A stretch of 64,000 bases of DNA from Mycobacteriales bacterium (GCA_035695045.1 DASSEX010000081.1:9881-73880); one strand, 5' to 3'; counted from the first letter of the stretch, positions 9,800-36,574 are shown. The notes: generated from the sequence alone by a model not told the origin. Made by a program: numbers and translations.

Positions 9800-11365
9800 T
9801 CACACGGGCGCGACCCCGTGGCGCCGGCGCGAGAATGCCCGGTCCTTGTTCCGGTACGCCGCCAGCCGGCGGATGAGCTCTGAGCGCAGCTCTTCGGGCT
9901 CGACGATCGCGTCGACGACGAGCTCACTCGCCAGCCGCACGATGTCGATGTCGGCGTTGTACTCGTCGCGCAGCTTCTGCACGTAGACCGCACGCTCGGT
10001 CTCATCCTCGATCGACTGAATGCGGTTGTAGTGGACGGCATTGACCGCCGCCTCCGCACCCATCACCGCGATCATCGCGGTGGGAAGCGCCAGCGTCGCG
10101 TCCGGCTCGAAGCCCGGCCCGGCCATCGCGTAGAGACCGGCGCCGTAGGCCTTGCGAACGATCACCGAGATCTTCGGCACGGTCGCCTCGGACACCGCGG
10201 TGATCATCTTCGCGCCGTGCCGGATGATGCCCTCCCGCTCGACGGCCGTGCCCACCATGAAGCCCGGAACGTCGGCGAGAAACACCAGGGGGACGTTGAA
10301 CGCGTCGCAGAGCTGGATGAAGCGTGCGGCCTTGTCCGCGGAGTCGACGAACAGGACGCCGCCTTTGAACATCGGGTTGTTGGCGACGATTCCGACAACC
10401 TCGCCGTCGAGACGCGCGAAGCCCACCAGCAGCTCTCGCGCCCACAGCGCATGGATCTCGAAGAACGAGTCTTCGTCGACCAGCGCCTTCACGTAGCGCC
10501 GCATGTCGAATGCCTGCCGCTCGCTGACGGGCACGAGGGAGCGCAGATCGCCGGTGCCGGCCGCCCTCGGCTCGGAGCGCGGGGGGAGCTGGGTCCAGTT
10601 CGAGGGCAGATAGGACAGATAGCACTGCACGATGTCGAGCGCGGTGGGCTCGTCCTTGGCGAGGAAGTGGCCGACGCCTGAGACGGTGCAGTGCATCTTG
10701 GCACCGCCCATCTCCTCCAGCGTCGTCTTCTCCCCGACGACCATCTCCACCATGCGAGCCGATCCGAGGTACATCGAGGCGTTGCCGTCCACCATGACGA
10801 CGACGTCACAGAACGCCGGGATGTAGGCGCCGCCCGCGGCGCTGGGACCGAACAAGGCACACACCTGAGGAATCGAGCCACTGGCCCGAACCTGGGTGTG
10901 GAAGATCTTCCCCGCTCCCCGCCGACCGGGGAACATCTCGACCTGGTCGGTGATGCGCGCGCCTGCGGAGTCGACCAACCACACCATTGGCACACCGGTG
11001 CGGTAAGCCTGCTCGATGATGCGCACGATCTTCTCGACCGTCCGGGCACCCCACGATCCGGCCTTCACCGTCGAGTCGTTGGCCATCAGACACACCGGCC
11101 GACCGTCGACGGTGGCGGTCCCGGTCACGACGCCGTCTGCCGGCAGATCGGCCGCGCCGGCGTTCGCGTAGAGCCCGTCCTCGACGAACGAGCCCGCGTC
11201 GACGAGCAGACGGATCCGCTCTCGCGCGAACAGCTTGCCCTTCTCGGCGTTCGCACTGTGGTACTTCTCGGCGCCGCCCGCGAGGATCCGCTCCCGGAGC
11301 TGGGCGAGATGGGGGTGACCTGGATCGTCGTGCTCGGCCCTGACAGCCTCGGAGTCGGCGCTCAT
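9800..11365 (-). CDS. acyl-CoA carboxylase carboxyltransferase beta subunit (AccD1/MCCase-beta-like)
   Basis: 521 aa from the internal ATG (MSADSEAVRAEH...). Carboxyltransferase N- and C-subdomains are present ([23 protein letters not shown] ... VANNPMFKGGVLFVDSADKAARF). Confidence 0.85.
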   Translation of the reverse strand: MSADSEAVRAEHDDPGHPHLAQLRERILAGGAEKYHSANAEKGKLFARERIRLLVDAGSFVEDGLYANAGAADLPADGVVTGTATVDGRPVCLMANDSTVKAGSWGARTVEKIVRIIEQAYRTGVPMVWLVDSAGARITDQVEMFPGRRGAGKIFHTQVRASGSIPQVCALFGPSAAGGAYIPAFCDVVVMVDGNASMYLGSARMVEMVVGEKTTLEEMGGAKMHCTVSGVGHFLAKDEPTALDIVQCYLSYLPSNWTQLPPRSEPRAAGTGDLRSLVPVSERQAFDMRRYVKALVDEDSFFEIHALWARELLVGFARLDGEVVGIVANNPMFKGGVLFVDSADKAARFIQLCDAFNVPLVFLADVPGFMVGTAVEREGIIRHGAKMITAVSEATVPKISVIVRKAYGAGLYAMAGPGFEPDATLALPTAMIAVMGAEAAVNAVHYNRIQSIEDETERAVYVQKLRDEYNADIDIVRLASELVVDAIVEPEELRSELIRRLAAYRNKDRAFSRRRHGVAPV

Positions 11366-11432
11366 CAAGCGGAAGCGTAGCGGCCCAGGCGTGCCCGACC
11401 GTGCACACCGCTGCGCTAGGGTCGCAGGCCCT

Positions 11433-12608
11433 ATGTCGCAACCAGATCGGCCCATCTTCATCGTCGGCTGCCCGCGATCGGGTACGACGTTGTTCCGGAC
11501 GATGCTGCATGCGCATCCACGCATCGCCGTGCCGCCGGAGACCCGGTTCGTCATGCCGGCGTATCGCCGCCGCTACGCGTTCGGTGACCTCCAGCTGACC
11601 GCGAACCGACAGCGACTCGCCAGGTGGATCGTGGATCGGGCAGAGACCCGGTTCAGCGTTCTCGAGGTCGATGCGGAGAAGGTTCGACAGGCCATCATCG
11701 ACGGGCCGCCGACCTTGGGATCAGCGTTCGGCGCCGTCTTCCGCGAGTACTCCGACAGCCATGGCAAGGCGCGCTGGGGCGACAAGCGCCCGGCCTACTA
11801 CTCGTTCATCGAGGAGCTCGACGCCCTCTTCCCGGACGCGCAGTTCATCCACGTCGTCCGGGACGGGCGGGCATGCGTGGCGTCGCTGAAACGGACACCC
11901 TGGCTCGACCACGAGCCGATTCCGTGCATGGCGACCTGGATGATGGCGATCGACTGCAGCCGCGAGTCCGGCGCGAAGCTCGGCCGGAACCGCTTCTGCG
12001 AGGTCCGTTACGAGGACCTCGTCACAGACCCGGAGAAAGAGATGCGACGGGTCTGCGAGTTCCTCGGCGAAGCCTTCGTCCCCGAGATGTGTCATCCCGA
12101 GAAGATCGCCGAGCAGGTAAACCCTGCGCATTACCAGCAACGCCGTCAGATCAGCGAGGGCATCTACACCAAGTCGATGGAGGCCTGGCGCGACGAGCTG
12201 ACACCGTGGGAGATCGCAACTTTCGAGAAGGCGGCGGGTTCGCGGCTGGCGCTCTACGGCTATGCCCCGTCCGGCATCGACCAGGAACCCCCCAAGGACA
12301 AGGTCCACGAGCTGCTCTCCGAGCACCGCCGCCTCCGCCAGAGCCTGCAGTCCCGGCGTCGTTCGGATCGGCGCAAACGCGTCGATGCCGACCGCCCCGT
12401 TGCCGCCGTACTGACCGAAGGGCAGCGCAAGGCCGCCGCCGAACCGATGAGGCGTCCGTTGGCAAGCAAGCTGCGGCGGTCCGCCCGGCCGGTCGTCCGC
12501 CGAACCCGACGGTTGTGGCGCACAATGGTCCGTCTCGAACGGCCTCCTCGCGCGGCAGCAGCGGCCCCCTCCGCCCAGCAGGCAGTCGACAACATCGAAG
12601 AGACCTGA
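11433..12608 (+). CDS. sulfotransferase family protein (second copy) with basic C-terminal tail
   Basis: About 391 aa from MSQPDRP. Contains the IFIVGCPRSGTTLF 5'-PSB P-loop and a mid-protein VVRDGRA (3'-PB-like) motif. The C-terminus is Arg/Lys-rich. Confidence 0.75.
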   Translation: MSQPDRPIFIVGCPRSGTTLFRTMLHAHPRIAVPPETRFVMPAYRRRYAFGDLQLTANRQRLARWIVDRAETRFSVLEVDAEKVRQAIIDGPPTLGSAFGAVFREYSDSHGKARWGDKRPAYYSFIEELDALFPDAQFIHVVRDGRACVASLKRTPWLDHEPIPCMATWMMAIDCSRESGAKLGRNRFCEVRYEDLVTDPEKEMRRVCEFLGEAFVPEMCHPEKIAEQVNPAHYQQRRQISEGIYTKSMEAWRDELTPWEIATFEKAAGSRLALYGYAPSGIDQEPPKDKVHELLSEHRRLRQSLQSRRRSDRRKRVDADRPVAAVLTEGQRKAAAEPMRRPLASKLRRSARPVVRRTRRLWRTMVRLERPPRAAAAAPSAQQAVDNIEET

Positions 12609-16582: not shown

Positions 16583-18223
16583 CTAAGGCCGATGCAGGCG
16601 AGCTGCCGTCTGTTGCGCGGCATAGCGCGCCCACGAGCCGGCCGCGATGGCACGGTCGGTGATCTGTGGCAGAGCGGTCAGCTGGAGGACGAGGCGGCCG
16701 TTGACCTCCGCGATGCGCACGCGATCGCCGACGAGGCGCCGCCACGGCGTCGGAAGCGGGTGGTCGCCCGGCGGCAGGTCCGCGTCGCGCCCCGTCAGTG
16801 GCCGGACCACGCGCTCGCCGTCACGCTGCAGCTCGACGAGCAGCCGCAGCTCGTGACCCACCGTCGGGCGGCCGAGCGCCTTGCCCAGAGCAACGAGATC
16901 GAGGCGTCCGCTGAACCGGACGTCGGCCCCCGCGTCGGTCAGCAGGAGCGGGCCGGACCACAGCACACCGCCGAGCCGCCCGCGCACGAGGATCCGGCCG
17001 GCCAGGGACTGAGCCGGCCCGAGCCGGCCGAGGACGTCGTACACGCGTCCGTCGCAGAACAGGCTGTCGCCCTCCCAGCGAGCGTGGTCGACCGTGGCGA
17101 GGAACGGTGTCGCCGCGAAGGCGGCGGAGAGCACGCCCGTCGCGGTCACGTCGAGAGCGTCGCCCGCGTCGGGATGAGCAGACGTCCAACGCAGCCGGTC
17201 GCCGCCTTCGACGGTCAGGTCGGACGCCAGGCCTCCGGTCACCGCGAAGTCGGCCGCCGCCAGCACGCCGGGCAGGTCTCCGCGGGCCGCGAGGACTGCC
17301 GCGACCCTGGGGCCGACCGGCTCGACCGGCCAGCTCCGCTCGTCGATGCCGGTCAGGTACTTCTGCGCCAGGTCCAGCAGTGCCTGCCGGTCATCGGTAC
17401 GACGACCACGGAGGTCACGCAGGAACACGGTGAAGTCCGCCGACAAGAACTTCACCTGCTTGGCGCGAACGACCGCGGCCGGCACATCGACGCGAGCGAG
17501 ATGCGCGTCGATGCGGCGATGCACCTCGAACCGGTCCTGCCAGTTGCGGAGCTCCGTGCGGTTGGTGATGGAGGGGATGTCCGCGTCACGCCGGACGTTC
17601 CAGACGTAGACCAGGTCGGGCACGACGGCGATGCGCCGGGCGCTCACGTAAGCCGCGGTCGTGAAGAGCAGATCCTCGTAGAGGAGCCCCTCCGGGAACG
17701 ACAGGTCGTTGTCCGTGAGGAAGCGGCGCCGGTAGAGCTTCGCGGGGGCAGGCGTGTCGAACAGCTGCTCCGGACGCTCGGCGATGCCGTCGACGACCGC
17801 CGCGCGGGCATAGAGCCGGCGGTGCGCCTCGATGTAGCGCGTCGGCCGGTGGTGGCGCCGCACCCACCGGCCGCACACGATGTCGGCGTCGGTGCGCCGC
17901 GCCGCGCGCAGCAGCCGGCTGCACGCCGGCCGGGGCAGCGCGTCGTCGCTGTCGAGAAACGTGACGTAGTCGCCCGTCACGAGTGACATGCCGACGTTTC
18001 GTGGGCGGCTGCAGCCCCCGCTGTTGGTCTCCAGCCGGTGGTAACGGACGCGTTCATCCGCGGCCGCGAGGGCCGCCGCGACCGTCGGCGTCTCGTCGTC
18101 CGATCCGTCGTCGACGATGACGACCTCGAGGTCGCGAAGGGTCTGCGTCGTCGCCGACCGGACAGCTGTGCCCAGGTGCTGCGCGTCGTTGAAGCAGATC
18201 ACGACGACCGACACCGCGGGCAT
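16583..18223 (-). CDS. glycosyltransferase family 2 with C-terminal non-TagF extension
   Basis: 546 aa. The N-terminal GT2 domain is paralogous to the two fusion proteins ([10 protein letters not shown]...[12 protein letters not shown]...FLDSDD). The C-terminal half has no Glyphos_transf motifs. Confidence 0.8.
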
Positions 18224-21305: not shown

Positions 21306-22158
21306 CAGGAGGCCGGCCGGCTCGGGTCATCCGCCAGGCCGCTCTCCAGCCGATCGGACGGCGTTCGCCGCAGGGCTGACGGAGGCCGTCCCGCCACCCG
21401 CGCAGCGCCTCCCGGCGCGCGGCGCCCTGCGGCACGCGGGCGAGCGTCAGCACGAACCAGACCGCGAGGTAGACGGCGGCGACCGGCGCGGGCAGGTTGC
21501 GGCGGGCGAGCCACACCCGGTTGCGCCCCTGCATCCGGAAGTACGCCGGGTCACGCCCCGGCTGCTTCGCATCGTGCCAGCACACCAGCGCACCGGCGTA
21601 ACGCACCCGATGCCCTCCGTCGATGACGCGCCACGCGAGCTCGACGCCTTCGTGCTGGTAGAAGTACACCTCCGGCCAGCCACCGGCCGCCGCGAGCACG
21701 TCGCGCCGCGCGACGACCGCTCCCTCCCACAGCGCCGCGAGGTCACTGTCCCGGCCCGCGTCGCCGACGCGCAGCCGCGGTACGAAGGAGCGCGGCGTCT
21801 CCCCCGTCACCGGGTCGACCGGACGCAGCTGCACCACTCCGATGTCCGGGTTCGCGTCCAAGAGCTCCGCGGCCCTCGCGAGCACGTCGTCGTCGGCCAG
21901 GGCAGCGTCGTCATCGAGGAAGAACAACAGCTCGCCACTGACATGTGGCACACCCGCGTTGCGGCCGGCCGGGATGCCGACGTTCTGGGGAAGCCCGACA
22001 CCGCGCACGTCCGGAGGCAGGCCACTGGGCTGCCAACCGTTGCCGACGACGACGACGTCGAGAGAGACGCCACGTTGGGACAGGATCGAGCGCAGCGCCC
22101 GCTCCAACAGCTCCGGTCGGTTGCCCATGGTGAGGACGACGCAACCGATGCCGGTCAT
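21298..22158 (-). CDS. glycosyltransferase family 2 (short, GT-A)
   Basis: 287 aa from the internal ATG (MTGIGCVVLTMGNRPELL...), with an FLDDDA DXD motif. Its 3' end overlaps the convergent lipoprotein gene by 8 nt. The ORF-track extension to 22704 is discounted. Confidence 0.75.
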   Translation of the reverse strand: MTGIGCVVLTMGNRPELLERALRSILSQRGVSLDVVVVGNGWQPSGLPPDVRGVGLPQNVGIPAGRNAGVPHVSGELLFFLDDDAALADDDVLARAAELLDANPDIGVVQLRPVDPVTGETPRSFVPRLRVGDAGRDSDLAALWEGAVVARRDVLAAAGGWPEVYFYQHEGVELAWRVIDGGHRVRYAGALVCWHDAKQPGRDPAYFRMQGRNRVWLARRNLPAPVAAVYLAVWFVLTLARVPQGAARREALRGWRDGLRQPCGERRPIGWRAAWRMTRAGRPPVI

Positions 22159-22946
22159 CGCAGTCGCGCTGACGTCAGGATCGTCAGCAGATGCAGCAGG
22201 CAGACGAGGACGCCGACGACGGCGAGGACGACGGCAAGCACCTGATGACCGACGGTCGAACCCGCGACCAGGTCGACGACGGCGACCGCCACGAGGACCA
22301 CCGACAGGTCCCAGGCGAGCAAGAGACGGTTGATCGGGACGGCGTACGCGAGACGGCGTAGCCGGCGGATCCCGGAGACCTGCGGCGCGACAGCCGTCGG
22401 CTCGAAACGAGGCAGCCCGACATAGGCACGCGCCACGTGCACGAGGTCGGTCTCCGCCCTGCTGACCAGGACGAGCACGGCGCCGAGCAGCCCGAGTGTC
22501 GTCCAGCCGCCGATCGACCCGAGGCCACCGTCGGCATGCACCCCGACCGCGCACACGACGGCTGCGTCGGTCGTGTAGTGGCCGAAGCGGTCGAGGTAGA
22601 TCCCGCGCGGACTGCTCCACTGACGCCAGCGCGCGAGTTCTCCGTCCGAACAGTCGCAGAGCAGCTGCAGCTGGATGAGTGCGACCGCGACGAAGTCGGA
22701 CCACGCCGACGGCACGGTGAGCACCAGCGCCGCGGCCAGCCCGCTGACCACCATCAGCCAGGTGAGGCCGTCCGGCGTTGCCCTGGTGGGGATCAGCGCC
22801 CGGGTGAAGTGCAGCGACACCCGGCGCATGTAGAGCCGGCCCATCCAGTGCTCGCGACTCACGTCCTCGACGAGCGCCGGCGGATGAACGATCGCGCGCA
22901 GCTCCTCGAGCGAGGGCCGCGTGCGCTCAGCCGAAGGCGGCGACAT
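22155..22946 (-). CDS. CDP-alcohol phosphatidyltransferase family protein
   Basis: 263 aa polytopic membrane protein carrying the CDP-OH_P_transf motif DCSDGELARWRQWSSPRGIYLDRFGHYTTDA (D-x2-DG-x2-AR...G-x3-D-x3-D). Confidence 0.8.
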   Translation of the reverse strand: MSPPSAERTRPSLEELRAIVHPPALVEDVSREHWMGRLYMRRVSLHFTRALIPTRATPDGLTWLMVVSGLAAALVLTVPSAWSDFVAVALIQLQLLCDCSDGELARWRQWSSPRGIYLDRFGHYTTDAAVVCAVGVHADGGLGSIGGWTTLGLLGAVLVLVSRAETDLVHVARAYVGLPRFEPTAVAPQVSGIRRLRRLAYAVPINRLLLAWDLSVVLVAVAVVDLVAGSTVGHQVLAVVLAVVGVLVCLLHLLTILTSARLR

Positions 22947-23964
22947 AGTCGTCGACCCGCTTGCGGACGTCCGCCTCCGGCAGGTCGAGGTGCTCGAGGA
23001 TCGTGAACCGTTCGGGCCGCGTCGTCGGGGCGTGCACCACAGCGGCGGTGAACTGCTCGCTGGTGAGCGTGATGTCTCCCGGCAGCCTCGGCAGCTGGTG
23101 CCGCCGCAGGCACTCGTCGATCAGCTGCTGCTGCCTCTGGTCGCCGCGTAGGAACGCACAGAAGAGCGCGCCGACACCGGCGAGCTCGCCGTGGTTGCTC
23201 ACGCCCGGGAAGAGCTGGTCGATGGCATGGAGGATCTCGTGGTCGCCGCCGCTGCAGGGCCGGCTGCTGCCGGCGACCGCCATTGCCAGGCCGGACAGGA
23301 TCAGCGCCTCGGCGAGGGTCACCAGGAAGTCGGCCGACTCGATCGAGTCGGGCCTGAAGACGACGGCGTCCGCTGCCGCGCGCGCCATGGCCGCGGCGAG
23401 CCCGTCGATCTGCTCGCCGCGCTCGTCGGCCGCGAGCTGCCAGTCGGACAGAGCGGACAGGTTGCTGACCACGTCGCCGATGCCGGACCGCACCATCCGC
23501 TCGGGCGCGCGCTGCACGTAGTCGAGGTCGACGAACACGGCGAGCGGGATGTGCACGCCGTACGAGCCCTTCCGTCCTTCGTGCTCCAGCGACGCGACCG
23601 GTGACGCGATGCCGTCGTGCGACAGGTTGGTCGCGACCGCGACCATCGGCAGGCCGGTCAGGCTCGCGGTGTACTTCGCGACGTCGAGCGTCCGCCCGCC
23701 GCCGATGCCGACGACGGCGTCGTACGACGACTGACGCAGGCGCACCGCGAGCTCACGGGCGGAGTCGACGGATGCTTCCTCCACCGGCAGGACATCGGCG
23801 TCGGTGAGGGTCGGCGCGAGCACCTCCGCGATGGCCTCGCCCTGGCCGGGACCGACGAGGACGGCGACCCTCCCCCCGGCGGAGATGCCACCCTCGGCGA
23901 GCAGCCGGCGAAGTCCCGTGATCGCGCCGCGCCGCACGTCGACCGTGAGCGGCGACGCGATCAT
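22927..23964 (-). CDS. iron-containing alcohol dehydrogenase superfamily; sn-glycerol-1-phosphate dehydrogenase (AraM/EgsA)-like or glycerol dehydrogenase-like
   Basis: 346 aa from the internal ATG (MIASPLTVDV...). Contains the GIGGGRTLDVAKYTA glycine-rich NAD(P) loop and a DHE/HxxxH metal-site region. Its size and motifs fit G1PDH better than 3-dehydroquinate synthase. Confidence 0.6.
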   Translation of the reverse strand: MIASPLTVDVRRGAITGLRRLLAEGGISAGGRVAVLVGPGQGEAIAEVLAPTLTDADVLPVEEASVDSARELAVRLRQSSYDAVVGIGGGRTLDVAKYTASLTGLPMVAVATNLSHDGIASPVASLEHEGRKGSYGVHIPLAVFVDLDYVQRAPERMVRSGIGDVVSNLSALSDWQLAADERGEQIDGLAAAMARAAADAVVFRPDSIESADFLVTLAEALILSGLAMAVAGSSRPCSGGDHEILHAIDQLFPGVSNHGELAGVGALFCAFLRGDQRQQQLIDECLRRHQLPRLPGDITLTSEQFTAAVVHAPTTRPERFTILEHLDLPEADVRKRVDDYVAAFG

Positions 23965-23969
23965 CCGGG

Positions 23970-24701
23970 CTAGTAGTGGCACGCGATCTCCCGCGCCTTC
24001 GCGAGGTCGTCGTGGTTGTCGACCTCGACCCACGCGACCGTCCCGATCGGCGCGACATCGACCAGGCCGCCGCGGTCGGCGTACTCCTGGTAGCCGTCCT
24101 CGTAGTAGAGGCCGGTGTCCCGGCGCCAGGTCGCCTCGAGCGCCTCCGCGAGCCCGTCGGCTGCGGCAGGGGCGATCCGGGTCACGCCGATGTACTCCCC
24201 CGCAACCTCCGCCGGGTCGAGCTCTTTGTTGATGCGGGTCATCGTCCCGGCCGGACCGAGGATGATCTTCATCTCCTCCTCGGCGAGCGGCTTCACGTCG
24301 TCCATCGCGAGGAGGATCTCCCGTGGCTCCGTGGCGAGCAGAGTCTTCTCCACGGAATCGGGATGCACGGTGTCGCCGTTGCACAACAGCACACCCTCGG
24401 CGAAGAACTCACGCGCCAGCCACAGCGAGTAGGCGTTGTTCCACACCGTCGCCCTGTCGTTGAAGACGGTCCGCAGCCGGACACCGTGCCGTCGCTGCAG
24501 CGCCTCGACGCGGTTGTCGATCTGGTGCGCCGCGAAGCCGGTGACCACGACCACATCGGTCAGGCCCACCTGCGCGAGGTTGTGCAACGCGATGTCGAGG
24601 ATCGACGTGTCGTCGGCGACCGACAGGAGCGTCTTCGGAAGGTCGTCCGTCAACGGGGAGAGCCGGCGACCCGCGCCCGCGGCGAGAACGACTCCGATCA
24701 T
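23970..24701 (-). CDS. sugar/polyol-phosphate nucleotidyltransferase (GlmU/RmlA-like N-terminal fold; LicC/IPCT-like cytidylyltransferase)
   Basis: 243 aa. Contains the MIGVVLAAGAGRRLSPLTDDLPKTLL GxGxR(L) nucleotide loop. This is not the small TagD (HxGH) class. Confidence 0.75.
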   Translation of the reverse strand: MIGVVLAAGAGRRLSPLTDDLPKTLLSVADDTSILDIALHNLAQVGLTDVVVVTGFAAHQIDNRVEALQRRHGVRLRTVFNDRATVWNNAYSLWLAREFFAEGVLLCNGDTVHPDSVEKTLLATEPREILLAMDDVKPLAEEEMKIILGPAGTMTRINKELDPAEVAGEYIGVTRIAPAAADGLAEALEATWRRDTGLYYEDGYQEYADRGGLVDVAPIGTVAWVEVDNHDDLAKAREIACHY

Positions 24702-27682
24702 GCGCCAACCTCATCACACGCGGCCCTCAGACCTGCGCACCGCTCGACGAGGAAGTCGGCGACGGCGGCCGCTGCGCGTCCTTGGTCGTACTCCGCGAAC
24801 CGCACCCGAGCAGCGGCCCGCAACGATGCGCTGTCGTGCCGCGTTCGCTCGAGATCGGCGAGCAAGGCCGCCAGCGCCTCGTCGTCGTGCACGACCGGGC
24901 CGGGGGCGGCCTCGGCGATGTCGACGTACGCCGGCGGCGCCGTTCCGTGCACCGTGCGCCCGATCTCGCAGCGGCAGCCGACGAGGATGACCGGCCGGTC
25001 GCGGAGCACGATGTCGAACATCGCCGGGTGATGGTCGGTGACGAGGACGTCGGCGGCAAGCAGCAACTGCTCGAGCGGCCCGTCGCCGAGACGGAGAACG
25101 CGCGCGCCTCCGAACGCGACCGCGGAGCCGACCTCGGCCGGCCGGTCGCAGTCCCGCAGGTGAAGCACGGCGAGGTCCTCGGGGCGCACCCCGACCGCCG
25201 CCCGGGCGGCGTGGACCGACGCCGCGTCGTCGTGGACCAGAGCGTCGTTACGCGGGAGTCCTACCGGCAACGTCTGCGCCGTGTGCCGGAACGCGCGCGC
25301 CAGCACGTCCTCGTCGTACGGCGCCCGCACGCACACCGCGTCCCACCGATCGACACTGCGGCGCAGCGCAAGCCGGTCGTCGTTGCTCGCCCGGCGCATC
25401 TGCGGGGCGTCGAAGCCGACCCACCGCAACGGGGTGAACCTCGGGATGTGCACGTACACGGTGCTCGGCGACTTCACCGTCTCGCGCGGGAATCCGCTGT
25501 CGTCGACCCATGCCTCCGCTCGAGCGAGAGCAGAGTAGTAGGCCCAGGAGCCATGCCTGACGAGGCGCACGTCCGTGGGGAACACGGTGGTGTCGCCGGC
25601 GTGCACCCAGATCGGCTCGATGGGCAAACGCCTTCGGCGGAGCTCGTCGAAGACGGCACGCGGGCTTCCGCCGAACGCTGCACCGTCCTCGCTCTGGAAC
25701 ACCACCGACCGCGGCCGGGTGCGGGCCGGCCGAAGGGCGCGAGCCAACACCTCCTCACGCACCCGCGGGTGCGCGGGGTGCCGGGCCAACGTCGCCGCCC
25801 GCCGGGCGGTCTGCCGGGCGCGTCGCAGACCGGGCGACCGGAGAACCCGCTGACCCGCCTTGTGTACCGCCTGTGCACTGCGTGTGCCCGGAACCCACTC
25901 GAGAGCGAGGTCCCCCTGGGGCGTGACGAGGGTCTGGAGGCGGTCGGCAGCGAACCGGCCGGCGAGGGGTCGACCGGACAGATGCAGCCCGTCCCAGTCG
26001 GCATTCCGGACGGTCAACCGGGACTCGTTCACCTCGCTGCCGACGGACAGCTGCAGCCGCAGGTCCCAGACCCGATCGACGAAGCCGAGCGCCCTGATGG
26101 TCTGTCTGGTGTCGACGGTTGCAGTCCACTCGATGTCGCCGGTGTCCGGTTCACGTCGCAGGTCGAGGACCGGCACAGAGCCCGAGCGACGGCCGCGCCG
26201 GGGGCGGGCGATGAGGCGGGCGGCGACAGGAGCCTCCGACGGGATCCGGCCGAGCTGGTTGAGCAGTCGCCCACGCAGCTCTAGCCGATGACCGTGCACC
26301 TGCAGCTGCGTCACCTCGTCATAGAGGTCGAGGGAGGGCAGGGCCAGCTCCTGGAACCCGAGCTCTGTGACGTCGAAGAACGGCGCATCCGCGGCGGCTT
26401 CCAGTCCACGTTCGTCCCAGAACACCCGACCGGACCGCTCCAGGAGCCTCGTCGAGAGCTTGCGTCCGTGCGCCACGTAGTCGATGGCGCCGAACAGGCC
26501 GGCCTCGTCGTCATGCAGGAGGTACCACCCGACGAGTGCCTGGAGAGGATGGACGCGGGCGAACGCGGCGGCATCCAGCGTTTCCAGATAGCTCCTTGCG
26601 ACTCGGCCGAACTCCTCGCGGAACGCCGAGTCTCGGAACGGCAGATCCGGCAGGTAGAGCACGAGGTCGTGACGCAAGAACTTCAGGTCCTTGTGGAGCT
26701 TCAGCTGCGTTGCACCATGCGCCCGGAACTGCTCATCGAGCAGGCGATGCACGCGGACGCGGTCCTCGAAGTTGCGCAGCTCGGATCTCCGGTTGGAGAT
26801 CGAGGGGGTGTCGAGCGACTCGACCACGTTCCATCGGTAGACGACGTCCGGCACCAAGGTGAACCGGCGTGCGAGGAGGTAGACCTCCCCCGAGAAGAGC
26901 AGGTCTTCGTAGTGGACGCCTTCCGGGAAGCGCAGCGCATTGCGTTGGAGGAAGTCACGTCGGTAGCACTTGTTGGTGGACAAGGTGTCGTACAGCAGGT
27001 CGGGGTTCTCGAGGATCGACTCGTACGTCGTCCGTCTCGTGTAGAGCCACCGGTACCACGGCGACACTGCGCCGCCCTTGCTCAGGTGGACCCTGTGGCA
27101 GAGCCCAGACGAGAAGTCCGCCTCGTCTGCCTCCGCGGCGGCGACGAGAGTCGCGCAGGCAGTTCGGGGAAGCTCGTCGTCACTGTCCAGGAACATGACG
27201 TAGCGTCCGCGAGCGATGTCGATCCCGGCGTTGCGGGGACGGCTGCAGCCACCGCTGTTCTCGGCGAGCCGCTCGACCCGAATGCGGGGGTCGGCCGCGG
27301 CCAGCTTCGCAGTTACGGTCGGCGTGGCGTCAGTGCTGGCGTCGTCGATGATCACGATCTCGAGGTCGGTCATCGTCTGGCGGCGGACCGACCGGACGGC
27401 CGTGTCGAGACGGTCCGCGTCGTTGTAGACGATCACGACCACGCTCAGGAGCGGCTCGGTCGCCCTCGAGGAACGGGACGATCGGACACGGACAGGAAGA
27501 ATTCGGGCGCTCCTTAGGTTCTTCGGGTGACAGTCTCGTTGCTCCGTTGGGACTGAAGCAGGCCCCTGCCCCCGCCGAAGGAAAAGATATGCGACTCCGA
27601 CTTGTGGCCGCCGCGATCGCCGTGGCGCTTCCGACCATGGGCCTCGTGGCCACCACTGCTCCCTCTGCCGGCGCGGCGACAT
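24698..27682 (-). CDS. bifunctional GT2 / TagF-like glycerophosphotransferase fusion, second paralog (TagF-like active-site motif degenerate)
   Basis: 994 aa as the ATG-initiated ORF. The GT2 region starts near residue 78 (LLSVVVIVYNDADRL...[11 protein letters not shown]...FLDSDD), so the true start may be an internal GTG near 27440. The C-terminal TagF-like region keeps VTDHHPAMFDI but reads YVHIPRFTPLRWVGFD where paralog 1 has the WHG motif. Confidence 0.75.
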   Translation of the reverse strand: MSPRRQREQWWPRGPWSEAPRRSRRPQVGVAYLFLRRGQGPASVPTEQRDCHPKNLRSARILPVRVRSSRSSRATEPLLSVVVIVYNDADRLDTAVRSVRRQTMTDLEIVIIDDASTDATPTVTAKLAAADPRIRVERLAENSGGCSRPRNAGIDIARGRYVMFLDSDDELPRTACATLVAAAEADEADFSSGLCHRVHLSKGGAVSPWYRWLYTRRTTYESILENPDLLYDTLSTNKCYRRDFLQRNALRFPEGVHYEDLLFSGEVYLLARRFTLVPDVVYRWNVVESLDTPSISNRRSELRNFEDRVRVHRLLDEQFRAHGATQLKLHKDLKFLRHDLVLYLPDLPFRDSAFREEFGRVARSYLETLDAAAFARVHPLQALVGWYLLHDDEAGLFGAIDYVAHGRKLSTRLLERSGRVFWDERGLEAAADAPFFDVTELGFQELALPSLDLYDEVTQLQVHGHRLELRGRLLNQLGRIPSEAPVAARLIARPRRGRRSGSVPVLDLRREPDTGDIEWTATVDTRQTIRALGFVDRVWDLRLQLSVGSEVNESRLTVRNADWDGLHLSGRPLAGRFAADRLQTLVTPQGDLALEWVPGTRSAQAVHKAGQRVLRSPGLRRARQTARRAATLARHPAHPRVREEVLARALRPARTRPRSVVFQSEDGAAFGGSPRAVFDELRRRRLPIEPIWVHAGDTTVFPTDVRLVRHGSWAYYSALARAEAWVDDSGFPRETVKSPSTVYVHIPRFTPLRWVGFDAPQMRRASNDDRLALRRSVDRWDAVCVRAPYDEDVLARAFRHTAQTLPVGLPRNDALVHDDAASVHAARAAVGVRPEDLAVLHLRDCDRPAEVGSAVAFGGARVLRLGDGPLEQLLLAADVLVTDHHPAMFDIVLRDRPVILVGCRCEIGRTVHGTAPPAYVDIAEAAPGPVVHDDEALAALLADLERTRHDSASLRAAARVRFAEYDQGRAAAAVADFLVERCAGLRAACDEVGA

Positions 27683-28578
27683 CGCCCGTGCTCTTCGGTC
27701 TGACAGACAAGTGGAAGGACCAGATCAGCGCCGACAACTCGCAACTGCATCTGACCGCCGGCGTGGTCGACCTGTTCCAGCAGTGGGTCGCCACCAGCAC
27801 GAAGCGCACGACGGTGAAGAACTGGATGAGCTGGGTCCGGGGCGCCAGCGGCGCGCCCGGTGGCGCTCCCATGCTGACCCTTCAGCCACCCACGTCCGCC
27901 TCTTTGAGCTCGATCAATGCCGGGCACTACGACGCGCAACTGCGCGCGTGGGCGCACACGATTGCGTCCTGGGGCCACCCGATGTTCGTGCGGCTGTTCC
28001 CGGAGATGAATCAGAAGTCGCACAGCTACTCGCCCGGCTACGGAAGCAACACCGCCGCACAGTTCCGGACGGCGTGGCGTCACGTGGTCACACTGATGCG
28101 CAACGCCGGCGCTCACAACATTGCCTTCATCTGGTGCCCGTACCGCGTCTACTCGACCTCGACGCCACTGAAGTCGGTGTGGCCCGGTGCTTCGTATGTC
28201 AACTGGGTCGGATTCGACGCCTACAACTACGACGACTCACACCATGCCTTCGCGTGGCCGTACGCACTGTTCTCGCCCACCGTCAAGGCGATCCGCAGCA
28301 TCGCCCCGTACAAGCCGCTCGTCATCGCCGAAGTTGGCACAAGGCCCGAGAGCCAGAAGCCGACCTGGATCTCCCGCTCCGTAACGGCCGCCCAGTCGGT
28401 CGGCGCGAAGGCCATGCTCTGGTTTGACGAGAGCGCGGAGTACAACTGGCGGCTCGATTCGGCGCCAAGTCCCTCGGTGATCAACGCAGCCAGGACAGCA
28501 CTGCACTCGTCCGCGATCACCTACGCCGGCAAGTGGTCGATCGCCCGGATCGACCAGCTCGTCTCGACGGGCAAGTAG
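27589..28578 (+). CDS. secreted glycoside hydrolase, GH26-like (beta-mannanase/endoglycanase fold)
   Basis: About 329 aa from MRLRL, with signal peptide MRLRLVAAAIAVALPTMGLVATTAPSAGAA. Candidate catalytic motifs are FVRLFPEMN (acid/base Glu) and VIAEVG (nucleophile Glu). Upstream RBS is GAAGGAAAAG. Confidence 0.6.
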   Translation: MRLRLVAAAIAVALPTMGLVATTAPSAGAATSPVLFGLTDKWKDQISADNSQLHLTAGVVDLFQQWVATSTKRTTVKNWMSWVRGASGAPGGAPMLTLQPPTSASLSSINAGHYDAQLRAWAHTIASWGHPMFVRLFPEMNQKSHSYSPGYGSNTAAQFRTAWRHVVTLMRNAGAHNIAFIWCPYRVYSTSTPLKSVWPGASYVNWVGFDAYNYDDSHHAFAWPYALFSPTVKAIRSIAPYKPLVIAEVGTRPESQKPTWISRSVTAAQSVGAKAMLWFDESAEYNWRLDSAPSPSVINAARTALHSSAITYAGKWSIARIDQLVSTGK

Positions 28579-28583
28579 GCGGA

Positions 28584-31415
28584 CTAACCGTTCGGCTGGG
28601 AGGCGGCGATCGTCGCGAGCGCCGCCTCCAGCAGCCGCTCCTGCCGCTCGTACTCCGCCCGGTTGTTCGCGGCCAGCGCAGCCTGGGCGCGCGCCTGGGC
28701 CTGCTGAGCGGCGGCGACAGCCTGGGCCAGTCGGGCGGACGGCGTCGACCCGTTGCCGACGGCGTCGGCCAGGGCGAGGTCGAGTGTCGGCTCGAACGCG
28801 ATCGTGCCACCGCGCGCCACGACGACGCGACGCAGGATCGGGAAGGACGTGCCGCCCGCGGCGCGGGAGTAGATCGGTTCGACCCAGATGACGTCACCGT
28901 CGACCGGGATCGGCTGCAGGTTGCCCAGGACGACTCGGGAGCCGCCGCCTCGCAACAGTGTCAGCTGCTGGGCCACGCCGGGATCCGACTCGATGTCGTT
29001 GCGGATCTGGCCCGGTCCCTCGACGCCCGCCGGAAGGGTCTGCAGCTGCATCCGGCCGTAGCCAGGCCCCGGATCCGAGCCGACCGAGAGGTAGGCCGTC
29101 ATGGTGCGTCCGTTCAGAGAAACGAACGACGTCGTGAGTGCCAGCTGCGTGCCGCCGGCGCCGGGAAGGCGTAGGTAGTAGGACGGCTGCGCGGCCGACC
29201 CCTTCATCGTCGGGTCGGACGGCACCAGCCAGAAGTCACTGCCGTTGTAGAACGAGCGCGGGTCGGTGACGTGGTAGCGCGCAAGCATCGTGCGCTGCAC
29301 GTTGAACAGGTCGCGCGGGTAGCGCAGATGCGCACGTACGTCGGAGGGGAGGGCAGCCGCCGGCCGGACCAGTCCCGGGAACGCCTTCATCCACGTCGCA
29401 AGAACGGGGTCGCGCCCGAGGCCGGTCTCGGTGTCCCACCGGTAGAGGTGCACGGTGCCGTCGTACGCGTCGACCGTCGCCTTCACCGAGTTGCGGATGT
29501 AGTTGATGCTCTGGTTCGACTGCGCCGACGACGAGCCGTTCGTGACATAGGTGTCCGACGCCGCCGCGGCAAGGTTCTGCTGCTGCGAGTAGGGCACCGA
29601 GTTGGCCGTGGTGTAACCGTCGACCACCCACAGCACCCGCCCGCCGGCTACGACGGGGTACGCCGCCCCGTCGACGGTGAGCCAGGGGGCGACCTGCTGC
29701 ACGCGCTGCCGCGGGTCGCGGATAGAGAGCAGGCGCGAATACTTGTTGATGCCCTTGGAGAACAGGATGTTCTTGTCGCCGAGCTGCCAGGCGAAGGCGA
29801 GGCGTCGCCAGAACGAGCCGATCCGGACACCGCCGAGTCCGTGGTAGGTGTTGGTGACCTGGCCGCTTCCGGTGGCCGGCCGGTCGAACTCGTGCGGCCG
29901 CGCACCGGGCGGAGCGCCGACGATGGAGTACGACGGCGAGCTCTGCCCGAAGTAGATGCGCGGTTCGTAGCTGCCGAGGCCTCCCGTGGGGGGGATGTCC
30001 GACTCCACGAAGTTGGGTGTTCCGCCGCGGAGATCATCGACAGGCGCAGCGACAACGCCGTAGCCATGCGTGTAGACGAGGTGCAGGTTGCTCCAGGTGC
30101 GCTGACCACTGGGCAGTCCGGACGGGTTCAGCTCACGCACAGCCAGCGCGACGTCACGCGTGGCACCACCCAGCGGGTAGCGGTCCGTGTCCAGTGTCGA
30201 CTTGAACCCGTAGAAGGCACGGACCTGCTGCAGCTGGGTGAACGTCGGCGACATCTGGTTGGGGTCGAGCAGCTGCGGCTGTGCCGCGGCCACCGCCGCC
30301 GACACCGCCGCTCCGGACATCTGCTGCGGAGACGCGGCCGCGCCCGTGGTGACGGTGTCCGACCCGATGCCGTAGCCGTATCTGGTCGCCACCAGGTCGC
30401 GGGCGATGGACAGCGCTTCGGCGTCCTGGGCGTCCGGCTTGACGTGATAGGTCTGCACGACCCAGGGCACGACCCCACCGAGCACCACGCCGCTGAGCGC
30501 CAGCGTCACGACCCCCGCGGCCGTCACCTTCCAGCTGCGGAAGGCGGCGTTGATGAAGAACAGCACCGCGAGGATGACGGCGATGACCAGCAGGATCAGC
30601 TTCGAAGGCAGCACGGCATGGATGTCGGTGTACGACGGGCCGGTGACGACGCCGCGGTTGGAGACCGCTGTCGCCAGGCGGTCGAGCCAGTAGCCGAACG
30701 CCTTCAGCAGTGCGAGAGCGCCGAGCAGCAGGCACAGGTGGACGCGCATCTCGGCGCGCAGCCGCGGCCGTTGACCACGTGGTCGAAAGCCGCCGTTGAG
30801 GTAACCCATCACCCCCAGGAGCACCAGGCACAGCAGCACGATGGTGAACACCGCACCGAGCGCGAAGCGATGCATCGGGTAGACGAACACGTAGTAGGAG
30901 TAGTCGCGGTGGAACTGCGGGTCCTTGACTCCGAACGACGTCGCGTTGCGCCATTGCAGCCACAGCGGCCACTGCCGGGCTGCCCGGGACCCCAGCCATA
31001 TGCCGGCGACCAGGGCTGCGACGACCGTCACCAGGTGCCGGCGCGGGTAGACCAGCCGCCCGTAGCGAAGGCGCACCGAGAACCGCGTCGTCGGGGCGTC
31101 GCCGCCGTACGGTGTGTGCCGGTGCAGCGCGAAGAGGTTCACCGCGACGGCCAACGCGGTCGCCCCGCCGAAGACGGCGAACATCACGATCTGCGTCAGC
31201 AGCCGCCGTGAGTAGACCGACGACTCGTGCAACGAGCCGAACCACAGCCAGTTGGTGTAGAGCGAAACCACCGTGTTGACGACGGCGTACAGGACCGCGA
31301 CGACGACGACGAGCACGAAGAGCGGGCGGACCTTGCGCAACGTCGCCCGGATCGGGGCCTTGGGCCGGACCGGCGCCTCCACCTCACGGCTCTCGGATGG
31401 TGCGGCGGTCCTCAC
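28584..31415 (-). CDS. UPF0182 family large membrane protein
   Basis: 943 aa. The N-terminal TM bundle carries the family hallmark YTNWLWFGSLHESSVYSRRLLTQIVMF, followed by a large Gly/Tyr/Trp-rich extracytoplasmic domain. From memory it matches the mycobacterial Rv3193c-type UPF0182 proteins. Confidence 0.7.
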   Translation of the reverse strand: MRTAAPSESREVEAPVRPKAPIRATLRKVRPLFVLVVVVAVLYAVVNTVVSLYTNWLWFGSLHESSVYSRRLLTQIVMFAVFGGATALAVAVNLFALHRHTPYGGDAPTTRFSVRLRYGRLVYPRRHLVTVVAALVAGIWLGSRAARQWPLWLQWRNATSFGVKDPQFHRDYSYYVFVYPMHRFALGAVFTIVLLCLVLLGVMGYLNGGFRPRGQRPRLRAEMRVHLCLLLGALALLKAFGYWLDRLATAVSNRGVVTGPSYTDIHAVLPSKLILLVIAVILAVLFFINAAFRSWKVTAAGVVTLALSGVVLGGVVPWVVQTYHVKPDAQDAEALSIARDLVATRYGYGIGSDTVTTGAAASPQQMSGAAVSAAVAAAQPQLLDPNQMSPTFTQLQQVRAFYGFKSTLDTDRYPLGGATRDVALAVRELNPSGLPSGQRTWSNLHLVYTHGYGVVAAPVDDLRGGTPNFVESDIPPTGGLGSYEPRIYFGQSSPSYSIVGAPPGARPHEFDRPATGSGQVTNTYHGLGGVRIGSFWRRLAFAWQLGDKNILFSKGINKYSRLLSIRDPRQRVQQVAPWLTVDGAAYPVVAGGRVLWVVDGYTTANSVPYSQQQNLAAAASDTYVTNGSSSAQSNQSINYIRNSVKATVDAYDGTVHLYRWDTETGLGRDPVLATWMKAFPGLVRPAAALPSDVRAHLRYPRDLFNVQRTMLARYHVTDPRSFYNGSDFWLVPSDPTMKGSAAQPSYYLRLPGAGGTQLALTTSFVSLNGRTMTAYLSVGSDPGPGYGRMQLQTLPAGVEGPGQIRNDIESDPGVAQQLTLLRGGGSRVVLGNLQPIPVDGDVIWVEPIYSRAAGGTSFPILRRVVVARGGTIAFEPTLDLALADAVGNGSTPSARLAQAVAAAQQAQARAQAALAANNRAEYERQERLLEAALATIAASQPNG

Positions 31416-32179
31416 GGCTTGTCCTCTTCCTCGTCGTCGTCCACGTCGGTGTCCGCGCGATAGTGCTCGAGCACGTCGTCCATCGGGCCGTCCGCGACCT
31501 TGCGCCCGCCCTTGAGGTAGATGCCGCGTTCACAGAACCGCCGCAGGTCGTTCTCGTTGTGCGACACCATCACGACCGTGCGACCTTGGCTGAGGAGGTA
31601 CTCCATCACACGGTAGGACTTGCGTTTGAACCGTCGGTCACCGACGGCCATGACCTCGTCGACCAGCAGGATCGGCTCCTCCAGCCGGGTGACGACCGAG
31701 AAGCCGAGTCGCGACTTCATGCCGCTCGAATAGTGTCGGAGCGGCGTGTTCATGAAGCCTTCCAGCTCCGCCCACTTGACGATGCGGTTGTACTTCGCGT
31801 CGATCTGCCGCCGCGAGAACCCGTGCAGGGATCCGAGCAGGTAGACGTTGTCACGGCCGGTCAGCTCCGCGTTGAAACCCGCGTTGAGCTCGAGCATGGC
31901 GCCGACGCCACCGTTGACCCACACCTCGCCCTCGTCCGGCATCAACACGCCGGCGATCAACCGGAGGAGCGTGCTCTTGCCGGATCCGTTGCGGCCGATG
32001 AGTCCGACGGCCTCCCCCTGACGGACGCTGAACGAGACGTTCCTCAGCGCCCAGAACGTGTTCGGAGCGGTGATCGTGGCCTTACGGACGACGAAGTCCT
32101 GCAGCTTGAGCCGCCGCCGCCGGGTGACGGCGAAGTTGATCCCGACGTTCGACACGTTGATGACGTCCGGCACGCTCAC
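31412..32179 (-). CDS. tagH: ABC transporter ATP-binding protein, TagH/Wzt-like (glycopolymer export)
   Basis: 255 aa from the GTG overlapping the permease stop (GTGA). Contains Walker A GRNGSGKST, the ABC signature YSSGMKSRL and Walker B ILLVDE. Confidence 0.85.
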   Translation of the reverse strand: MSVPDVINVSNVGINFAVTRRRRLKLQDFVVRKATITAPNTFWALRNVSFSVRQGEAVGLIGRNGSGKSTLLRLIAGVLMPDEGEVWVNGGVGAMLELNAGFNAELTGRDNVYLLGSLHGFSRRQIDAKYNRIVKWAELEGFMNTPLRHYSSGMKSRLGFSVVTRLEEPILLVDEVMAVGDRRFKRKSYRVMEYLLSQGRTVVMVSHNENDLRRFCERGIYLKGGRKVADGPMDDVLEHYRADTDVDDDEEEDKP

Positions 32180-33048
32180 AGCTCCTTGAGCACGTGCCGC
32201 TCGAGCGTGATGAACGTCCACCAGCCGACGACGAAGAACAGGATCGCACCGACGCACGACACGAGGAACTGCGTCAGAAGGGTCCCCGCCGGGATCATGT
32301 TCGGGTACCAGACCGCGCGGTTGAGCTGCAGGATGCCGACGAGCGGGTTGAGCTGGTAGATCAGCGCCAACTTTCCGTGCAGCCGGCTCGACGGGTAGAG
32401 CACGGGCGACAGGTAGAACATCACCCGCAGCACCACGCGCAGGATCTTGGACACGTCGCGCAACAGCGCGTTCAGCGACGCGAGCATCAGTCCGAGGCCG
32501 ACGACGAGAAGCACCTCGACGAGGAACGCGAGCGGCAGCCACACGATGTAGCGACTGGGAAACTGGCCGTACAGCACACCCACGAGAAACACCACGGGGA
32601 GGCTGAGGAGGTACTCCGCCCCCTGCTCGCCGACGGACGCGAGCGGATAGATCTCCCTCGGCAACGTGACGGTGCGCACCAGGCCGGCGTTGCTGCGCAG
32701 CGAACCGGCCGCCTGCGACAGCGTGCCGTTGAAGAACAGCCACGGCATGATCGCCGAGGCGATGAACAGCGGGTAGTGCGGCATGCCGAACCGAGCGACC
32801 CGCCCGAAGATCAGCCAGTAGACGGCGACGAGCAGCGTCGGCTCGAGAAGCGACCAGGCGTAGCCCAGGAAGGACTCGCGGTACTGCACCTTGAGACCGC
32901 GCGCGATGAGCTCATAGAGGACGTTGGAGCGCCGCCGGATCTGGTTGATCCGCGCGACCGGGCTGCCACCCAGCAGCCGACCACGTTCGTAGTCCCACCA
33001 GACGCGCCACTCGTTGAGGAGCCCGGGCGGCTGCTCGACCTGCGTCAA
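32176..33048 (-). CDS. tagG: ABC-2 type transporter permease, TagG/Wzm-like
   Basis: 290 aa with 6 TM helices; ABC-2 family layout, immediately upstream of the ATPase. Confidence 0.85.
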   Translation of the reverse strand: MTQVEQPPGLLNEWRVWWDYERGRLLGGSPVARINQIRRRSNVLYELIARGLKVQYRESFLGYAWSLLEPTLLVAVYWLIFGRVARFGMPHYPLFIASAIMPWLFFNGTLSQAAGSLRSNAGLVRTVTLPREIYPLASVGEQGAEYLLSLPVVFLVGVLYGQFPSRYIVWLPLAFLVEVLLVVGLGLMLASLNALLRDVSKILRVVLRVMFYLSPVLYPSSRLHGKLALIYQLNPLVGILQLNRAVWYPNMIPAGTLLTQFLVSCVGAILFFVVGWWTFITLERHVLKEL

Positions 33049-36333: not shown

Positions 36334-36540
36334 ATGGCTCAGCAGAAGGCCGCCAGTGAGCCCCTGCTCACCCCCGCGGAAGTCGCAGGACTCTTCGGCG
36401 TCGACAGCGCAACCGTCACCCGGTGGGCACGAGCCGGCCGGCTGACCGCCGTACGCACGCTCGGCGGCCATCGGCGCTTCCTCGAACGCGAGGTGCGCGC
36501 ACGCCTTTCCGCGTCGACGGGCCCTTTCCGTTCGATGTGA
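36334..36540 (+). CDS. bldC: BldC-like small MerR-type HTH DNA-binding protein
   Basis: 68 aa. The sequence EPLLTPAEVAGLFGVDSATVTRWARAGRLTAVRTLGGHRRF resembles Streptomyces BldC. A strong RBS GGGAGGAGG lies 7 nt upstream, after a 212-nt leader. Confidence 0.8.
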   Translation: MAQQKAASEPLLTPAEVAGLFGVDSATVTRWARAGRLTAVRTLGGHRRFLEREVRARLSASTGPFRSM

Positions 36541-36574
36541 CCCAACCCCTGACAGCTTTCTCGGAGGACACGGC

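Follow-up and report, generated by a model that had tools for sequence, protein, structure and literature searches.

A putative CDP-polyol supply and transfer module of archaeal-type enzyme families in actinobacterial polymer-export gene clusters

Cytidylyltransferases that activate polyol phosphates are known from several systems. In the TarI/TarJ, fused TarIJ/Bcs1 and TagD systems of wall teichoic acid synthesis such an enzyme activates the polyol phosphate, and the reductase of the TarI/TarJ pair acts on a keto-sugar phosphate; a tarIJ fusion has also been described in Streptomyces (bioRxiv 10.1101/2025.04.24.650519). IPCT/DIPPS of Archaeoglobus fulgidus (PDB 4MND) and AF2299 (4O6M/4O6N/4Q7C) likewise join an NTP_transferase-fold cytidylyltransferase to a CDP-alcohol phosphotransferase with six transmembrane (TM) helices. 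The sn-glycerol-1-phosphate dehydrogenases (G1PDHs), among them archaeal EgsA and Bacillus subtilis AraM, belong to a further family. Here we describe a set of three adjacent genes, designated A, B and C, at positions 22155-24701 of a 64,000-nucleotide stretch (the window) of DNA from a Mycobacteriales bacterium (GCA_035695045.1 DASSEX010000081.1:9881-73880). The predicted pathway follows the known scheme of TarIJ or TagD plus a transferase but draws on other enzyme families, namely G1PDH, LicC/IPCT and AF2299/DIPPS-like ones, and the gene set is widespread in Actinomycetota.

Compared with TarIJ and TagD, the dehydrogenase encoded by gene B is of the Fe-ADH_2 type, related to 3-dehydroquinate (DHQ) synthase, rather than a short-chain or medium-chain dehydrogenase/reductase, and the nucleotidyltransferase encoded by gene A is built on the LicC-like NTP_transferase fold and not on an IspD or HxGH fold. 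The pathway is predicted to yield CDP-glycerol of the sn-1 type, enantiomeric to that made by TagD. Unlike in IPCT/DIPPS, the cytidylyltransferase and phosphotransferase are here separate proteins with the dehydrogenase gene between them, the fourth Asp of the phosphotransferase signature is replaced, and the genes lie within polymer-export clusters.

The interval contains exactly three minus-strand open reading frames (ORFs), transcribed in the order A, B, C. Gene A (24701-23970, minus strand) encodes a 243-residue NTP_transferase-fold protein, a putative CTP:glycerol-phosphate cytidylyltransferase of the LicC/IPCT rather than the TagD type; gene B (23964-22927, minus strand) a 345-residue Fe-ADH_2 enzyme of the G1PDH clade; and gene C (22946-22155, minus strand) a 263-residue integral-membrane CDP-alcohol phosphotransferase resembling AF2299 and DIPPS. 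Called mechanically, the ORF of gene B extends to 24384, its first 140 codons overlapping A. The three genes are co-directional and nearly overlapping, as the first-pass annotation had it, with 5 nt between A and B and a 20-nt overlap of B and C, and the dehydrogenase, placed first in that annotation, is the middle gene. On the 5′ side, the stop codon of a fusion of a family-2 glycosyltransferase (GT2) with a TagF-like domain (24698-27442, minus strand) shares an ATGA overlap with the start of A; on the 3′ side, the stop of C shares an ATGA overlap with a second GT2 gene (22158-21298, minus strand). These junctions indicate that A, B, C and the 3′ GT2 gene form one translationally coupled operon. 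Of 61 full-length related loci, 42 have A, B and C in this order, so the arrangement is not due to chance. The window has a G+C content of about 70%, and an Rfam scan of it gave no match. The C protein is 100% identical to one encoded in a metagenome-assembled genome labelled 'Mycobacteriales bacterium'. Synteny of the cluster across 929 Streptomyces genomes has been published, without characterisation there, and no experimental study of the gene set was found in the literature searched.

The conservation of this neighbourhood was examined by searching six-frame ORFs of 80 loci (designated below by L numbers) with the window proteins; tallies cover the 61 loci of at least 19 kb and count genes within 10 kb of C. 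The C family comprises 308 representatives at E ≤ 1e-10, and a genome scan found at least 531 relatives of C, almost all in Actinomycetota. The 3′ GT2 gene is the most constant neighbour of C (48/61), an ABC (ATP-binding cassette) permease gene is present in 53 loci and a DUF5941 gene in 35, and the conserved core is C, the GT2 gene and a TagGH-like ABC exporter. Genes A and B accompany C in 42 of the 61. Elsewhere a TagD-like gene (five loci, and one more that also has a TarIJ-like gene) or a TarIJ-like gene alone (two loci) is found, and both kinds take the same slot as A and B in related clusters. In Streptomyces the order is DUF5941, A, B, C, GT2, permease, ATPase, and most Kitasatospora loci differ from this in having no DUF5941 gene. 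In S. fungicidicus the hopanoid hpn genes adjoin the cluster. In Intrasporangiaceae the permease, ATPase and DUF5941 genes precede C, in that order, and a TagD-like PF01467 gene follows at a distance of about 1 kb. In four loci (L006, L053, L016 and L087) a TarIJ-like fusion of IspD and adh_short domains fills the supply slot, and L087 has the chromosomal neighbourhood of the window with this fusion instead of A and B. This interchange implies that A and B form a CDP-polyol supply module, for which a TagD-like gene or a fused CDP-ribitol synthase of the TarIJ type stands in elsewhere, and that C consumes the CDP-polyol. The first-pass reading is supported in part: its polyol-phosphate activation logic is borne out.

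The dehydrogenase groups with G1PDHs. B matches Pfam Fe-ADH_2 (PF13685) at 115.2 bits (gathering cutoff 28), and its best NCBIfam model is G1PDH NF002022 (245.7 bits, compared with 57 for GldA and 25 for AroB). A profile built from 13 family sequences and searched against the PDB retrieved 3ce9, annotated as 'glycerol dehydrogenase' (9e-63), and the G1PDHs of Methanocaldococcus jannaschii (4e-61) and P. calidifontis (6e-51) and of entry 9h4x (7e-31), ahead of the best true glycerol dehydrogenase, GldA (5e-20), and the best DHQ synthase (5e-11). With three crystallised G1PDHs B shares a GGG loop, Asp and His residues and an SSRPxSGxxH motif. The GGG dinucleotide loop (G88-G90) is invariant in the B-family alignment, the SSRPxSGxxH...H motif is conserved, and D117, H242/H246 and H258, likewise invariant, line up with their counterparts in 4rgq and 5fb3. 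We take D117 and these His residues to be the metal-ligand positions of the G1PDH family. Identity to the M. jannaschii enzyme, read off alignments, is roughly 40% over the catalytic region. The Joint Genome Institute annotates the B family as G1PDH, and published trees place actinobacterial homologues within the bacterial G1PDH clan (PMC6431249, PMC5059525). EgsA and AraM, with which B has fold and motifs in common, are its nearest characterised relatives; unlike them, B is linked to cytidylyltransferase and polymer genes rather than to GGGPS/PcrB ether-lipid genes. Stand-alone Fe-ADH_2 homologues in C. butyricum, Nitratidesulfovibrio (N. vulgaris pDV) and Cytobacillus (L003-L005) had neither the triad nor a cytidylyltransferase neighbour. 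As a separate observation, 3ce9, from Clostridium acetobutylicum, groups with the G1PDHs and not with GldA, yet has SSP in place of the SRP of G1PDHs.

Gene A encodes a protein whose nearest solved relatives are CTP (cytidine triphosphate)-dependent enzymes acting on small phospho-alcohols. It matches Pfam NTP_transferase (PF00483) at 49.5 bits (gathering cutoff 21.2), and the A family profile ranks LicC (6e-19), the phosphonate cytidylyltransferase PntC (2e-14) and Thermotoga IPCT (3e-14) above every sugar-1-phosphate enzyme, in agreement with the IPCT-like assignment made at first pass. The N-terminal loop AAGAGRRLSPLTDDLPK (GxGxRLxPxTxxxPK) is invariant in the A-family alignment, and A adjoins B at every locus where A is present. 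We infer from this homology that the enzyme is specific for CTP.

Gene C matches Pfam CDP-OH_P_transf (PF01066) at 26.6 bits (gathering cutoff 22), and the best solved relatives of its family profile are AF2299 (1.3e-19) and IPCT-DIPPS (1.5e-8), followed by phosphatidylinositol-phosphate (PIP) synthases. Its AlphaFold model (predicted local distance difference test, pLDDT, 90; predicted template-modelling score, pTM, 0.86) has six predicted TM helices and an interfacial helix, and in Foldseek AF2299 is the best match (template-modelling score ~0.6), with PIP synthase and DIPPS also matched. The donor of DIPPS is soluble CDP-inositol, and AF2299 presumably likewise uses a soluble donor. Longer relatives of C (P0144 and others) match PF01066 alone and thus give no evidence of domain fusion. 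When the signature D1xxD2GxxAR...GxxxD3xxxD4 was tested, D1, D2, G, A, R, G and D3 proved invariant across 81 C-family members. The D4 position holds His in 56 and Ala in 25 of the 81 sequences, the latter being the Streptomyces clade and a few related loci, and the position four residues further on is always acidic (Asp or Glu). An earlier impression from 28 representatives, that His at position 123 is invariant, failed with the 81 sequences. The first-pass placement of C among CDP-alcohol transferases stands as to family, and the canonical fourth Asp is replaced.

From these observations we propose, with moderate confidence, that A, B, C, the GT2 protein and the ABC exporter build a polyol-phosphate glycopolymer of the cell envelope. 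B would reduce dihydroxyacetone phosphate (DHAP) to sn-glycerol-1-phosphate (G1P), and A would join G1P with CTP to give CDP-glycerol. C may then move glycerol phosphate from CDP-glycerol to an acceptor in the membrane, either priming the chain or forming part of its repeat unit; the GT2 protein would add a sugar; in this genome, the inserted GT-A and TagF-like enzyme may extend a poly(glycosyl-glycerol-phosphate) chain; and the ABC transporter would export the product. The substrates (DHAP and CTP), the G1P stereochemistry, the acceptor and the polymer structure are predicted here from sequence. Since central metabolism already provides sn-glycerol-3-phosphate, a need for G1P best accounts for the presence of a dedicated reductase of the G1PDH clade, and the predicted donor would then be enantiomeric to the CDP-glycerol of TagD. 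TagF-like polymerases and glycerol-phosphate cytidylyltransferases can take both glycerol-phosphate enantiomers in vitro (PMC8262930).

Several observations weigh against this proposal. C does not have the full signature: His123 stands at the fourth position in the window protein (signature residues 119-127), and the fourth Asp is regarded as the catalytic base in the CDP-alcohol phosphotransferase family. Among NCBIfam models A weakly matches several of different function (archaeal GlmU, AglF, MurU and IPCT), in each case far under the cutoff. Eleven of the 61 loci have C without a supply module, and the A-B pair of L090 (7282-9059) stands alone, C, GT2 and ABC genes being absent within 8 kb. 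The TagF-like polymerase, which the first-pass annotation regarded as a partner lying directly downstream of the triad, in fact lies 5′ of it and is found in 5 of the 61 loci. It is also absent from L091, a close relative whose B is 94% identical and whose neighbourhood is otherwise the same as that of the window; its absence there (9097-9264) points to a lineage-specific insertion directly ahead of A. The gene thus appears to be a recent insertion in front of A, and together with the tally L091 rules out its being part of the conserved unit. The score of B lies under the NF002022 equivalog cutoff of 413 bits, so that the G1PDH-like assignment made at first pass holds as to grouping, G1PDH rather than GldA or DHQ synthase, and falls short of the equivalog level. 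Moreover, a protein annotated as G1PDH may have another activity, as does a haloarchaeal one that is a glycolaldehyde reductase (PMC9700705).

This last precedent bears on what the module supplies. B might reduce another keto compound and A activate another phospho-alcohol, yielding a CDP-polyol other than CDP-glycerol; the sub-cutoff score of B, the mis-annotated paralogue just cited and the pairing of close relatives of C with a CDP-ribitol-type module all favour this, but B shares all motifs and some 40% of catalytic-region residues with M. jannaschii G1PDH and its profile separates G1PDHs (1e-61) from the next family (1e-20), and we regard another polyol as unlikely. Still less do we favour a pathway like that of pneumococcal Gtp1-3 and WchX, in which glycerol, formed from dihydroxyacetone by the Fe-ADH protein, would be phosphorylated at O-2 by the third protein and turned into CDP-2-glycerol by the nucleotidyltransferase, as the donor for a glycerophosphotransferase. 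In actinomycetes, 2,3-linked poly(glycerol phosphate) has been reported. The pneumococcal set, which Wang et al. are said to have described in 2010, reportedly consists of dehydrogenase and nucleotidyltransferase genes and a third gene, beside a glycerol-phosphate transferase, and the product of the gtp locus is said to be exported by Wzx/Wzy, not by an ABC transporter. Bentley et al. list three gtp genes and wchX, and the two sets may comprise the same families beside a glycerol-phosphate transferase, although the literature searched gave no family assignment for Gtp1-3. The phylum and the gene order differ, however, B keeps the SRP motif of solved G1PDHs, and no Firmicute is among the best 150 relatives of C. 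Moreover, at some loci the only supply gene beside C is a TagD-like one or a TarIJ-like fusion, and a glycerol-2-phosphotransferase has no role there; by its synteny C thus behaves as a consumer of CDP-polyol rather than as a maker of activated glycerol like Gtp3, which renders CDP-2-glycerol distinctly improbable.

The closest solved relatives of A and C, IPCT and AF2299/DIPPS, raise the question of whether the product of the triad is a soluble compatible solute, a phosphodiester of the diglycerol-phosphate or di-inositol-phosphate type such as hyperthermophile IPCT/DIPPS makes. We consider this very improbable: A and C score 45.8 and 30.4 bits against the NCBIfam IPCT/DIPPS model NF041135 (cutoff 580), the window genes examined include no inositol-phosphate synthase, the hosts, soil actinomycetes, are mesophilic, and genes for an ABC-2 polymer exporter and a GT2, and often LCP or TagF-like genes, flank C at almost every locus. 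The same synteny, with GT2 and ABC genes kept across orders, speaks against C being an ordinary phospholipid head-group enzyme (PgsA, or a phosphatidylinositol or PIP synthase) that neighbours A and B by chance. Its PF01066 domain and its weak NCBIfam matches to archaetidylinositol-phosphate synthase and PIP synthase could be taken that way, but these matches score 37.7 bits where the cutoff is 180 and 25.5 bits where it is 170, C is far under all NCBIfam phospholipid-synthase cutoffs, and its family has invariant residues of its own and no fourth Asp. This possibility, named at first pass as one that would speak against its reading, we hold to be negligible.

Around the triad, the order on the minus strand is permease, ATPase, UPF0182, GT2+TagF-like, A, B, C, GT2, with a plus-strand GH26-like gene between UPF0182 and the TagF-like gene. 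The 3′ GT2 gene, GT2d, coupled to C, encodes 286 residues (PF00535, 48.6 bits). The permease of the ABC-2 exporter (32176-33048, minus strand; TagG/Wzm/KpsM-like) matches Pfam ABC2_membrane at 60.8 bits, its best NCBIfam matches being KpsM and galactan Wzm, both under cutoff; the TagH/Wzt-like ATPase (31412-32179, minus strand) matches NCBIfam TagH models at 184 and 175 bits, under their cutoffs, and galactan Wzt at 163 bits; the UPF0182 gene lies at 31415-28584 (minus strand). The GT2 (GT-A) and TagF-like glycerophosphotransferase fusion matches Glyphos_transf at 147 bits and Glycos_transf_2 at 111 bits. Its longest ORF runs to 994 residues from an ATG at 27682, and since the GH26-like gene (27547-28578, plus strand; Pfam 28.4 bits, lower G+C) overlaps the first ~45 codons of that ORF, its start is probably the GTG at 27442 or 27436. 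At the place of the GH26-like gene L091 has a 329-residue gene without a Pfam match. Cps3D/Cps7D-type TagF-like polymerases of poly(glycosyl-glycerol phosphate) (PMC8262930) have the same GT-A and TagF-like layout as the 994-residue protein; the latter differs in being actinobacterial, in having a 300-residue middle region without known function and in not being conserved with the triad. As to the classical TagD/TagB/TagF system, the TagF-like gene and the TagH matches of the ATPase point towards it, and the sub-cutoff scores of these matches, the KpsM and Wzm matches of the permease and the lack of conservation of the TagF-like gene point away from it. No TagD-like ORF was found in the 64-kb window at E ≤ 1e-4 with a TagD query that did recover PF01467 genes at other loci, in keeping with the first-pass statement that this is not the TagD route, and the window has no TarIJ-like ORF.

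Most remaining window genes are housekeeping genes (purEK, accD5/accA3, birA and others). Among them, a second GT2+TagF-like gene (5307-8132, plus strand; best NCBIfam match TarF, 248 bits), a 546-residue GT2 gene (16583-18223, minus strand) and a sulfotransferase gene (11319-12608, plus strand) suggest further polyol-phosphate glycopolymer functions, possibly sulfated. A 435-residue ORF at 36446-37753 (plus strand) has an unusual codon-position G+C and a sub-threshold LPXTG anchor match (19 bits, cutoff 20).

Related clusters contain further recurrent proteins. The DUF5941 proteins (~600 residues; L001 8405-10222, L007 7980-9977, L043 7301-9175 and L089 4922-7180), the commonest large partner of C, combine a CDP-OH_P_transf domain, which keeps DxxDGxxAR..GxxxDxxxD including the fourth Asp, with a DUF5941 membrane domain; no mention of DUF5941 was found in the literature searched. 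In Thermostaphylospora, LCP ligase, GT4 and acyltransferase genes flank the cluster, a wall-polymer setting that favours the proposed pathway. A 420-residue protein with no Pfam or NCBIfam match, which could be an unrecognised polymerase or transferase, recurs in clusters without A and B, often near the TarIJ-like fusion (L087 13180-14442 and 14471-14968; L006, L016, L026, L038, L043, L048 and L053). The A-B region of L090 includes fragmented ATP-synthase and EPSP-synthase gene calls. A tblastn search of plasmids found only Streptomyces and Nonomuraea replicons and an unrelated inositol-lipid locus of Prevotella nigrescens (L002 6378-10985), in which genes for an NDP-sugar synthase, a hypothetical protein, a CDP-alcohol phosphatidyltransferase, a HAD hydrolase and inositol-3-phosphate synthase stand in a row. 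This row is an inositol-type IPCT/DIPPS-like cluster, in contrast to the glycerol-type module described here.

Natural phosphatidylglycerol and lipoteichoic acid (LTA) carry sn-1 glycerol phosphate. Actinomycetes make LTA without LtaS, by a route that is not established (PMC3196553). The present cluster is conserved and pairs a predicted G1P supply of its own with two kinds of membrane CDP-alcohol phosphotransferase and with an ABC exporter, which makes it a testable candidate for that route. Tentatively, and as a rather doubtful extension of the proposed pathway, the A-B-C-GT2-ABC cluster might be an LtaS-independent route of Actinomycetota to lipoteichoic or teichoic polymers of the sn-glycerol-1-phosphate type, in which CDP-sn-1-glycerol would be made from archaeal-type G1P and attached to a lipid alcohol by a CDP-alcohol phosphotransferase in a Kennedy-like reaction, after which the chain would grow in the cytoplasm and leave through the ABC transporter. 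GlpQ is stereospecific (PMC7086022) and could serve as a probe of chirality. The cluster also points to a subfamily of CDP-alcohol phosphotransferases that may work without the canonical fourth Asp. Bacterial G1PDH homologues have been discussed mainly for the 'lipid divide', with no role assigned outside Bacillus AraM/PcrB; here the bacterial G1PDH clan is tied, across Actinomycetota, to a cytidylyltransferase and to cell-envelope polymer genes. If the LtaS-independent route is true, this clan would gain a physiological role and a natural enantiomer of CDP-glycerol would be revealed.

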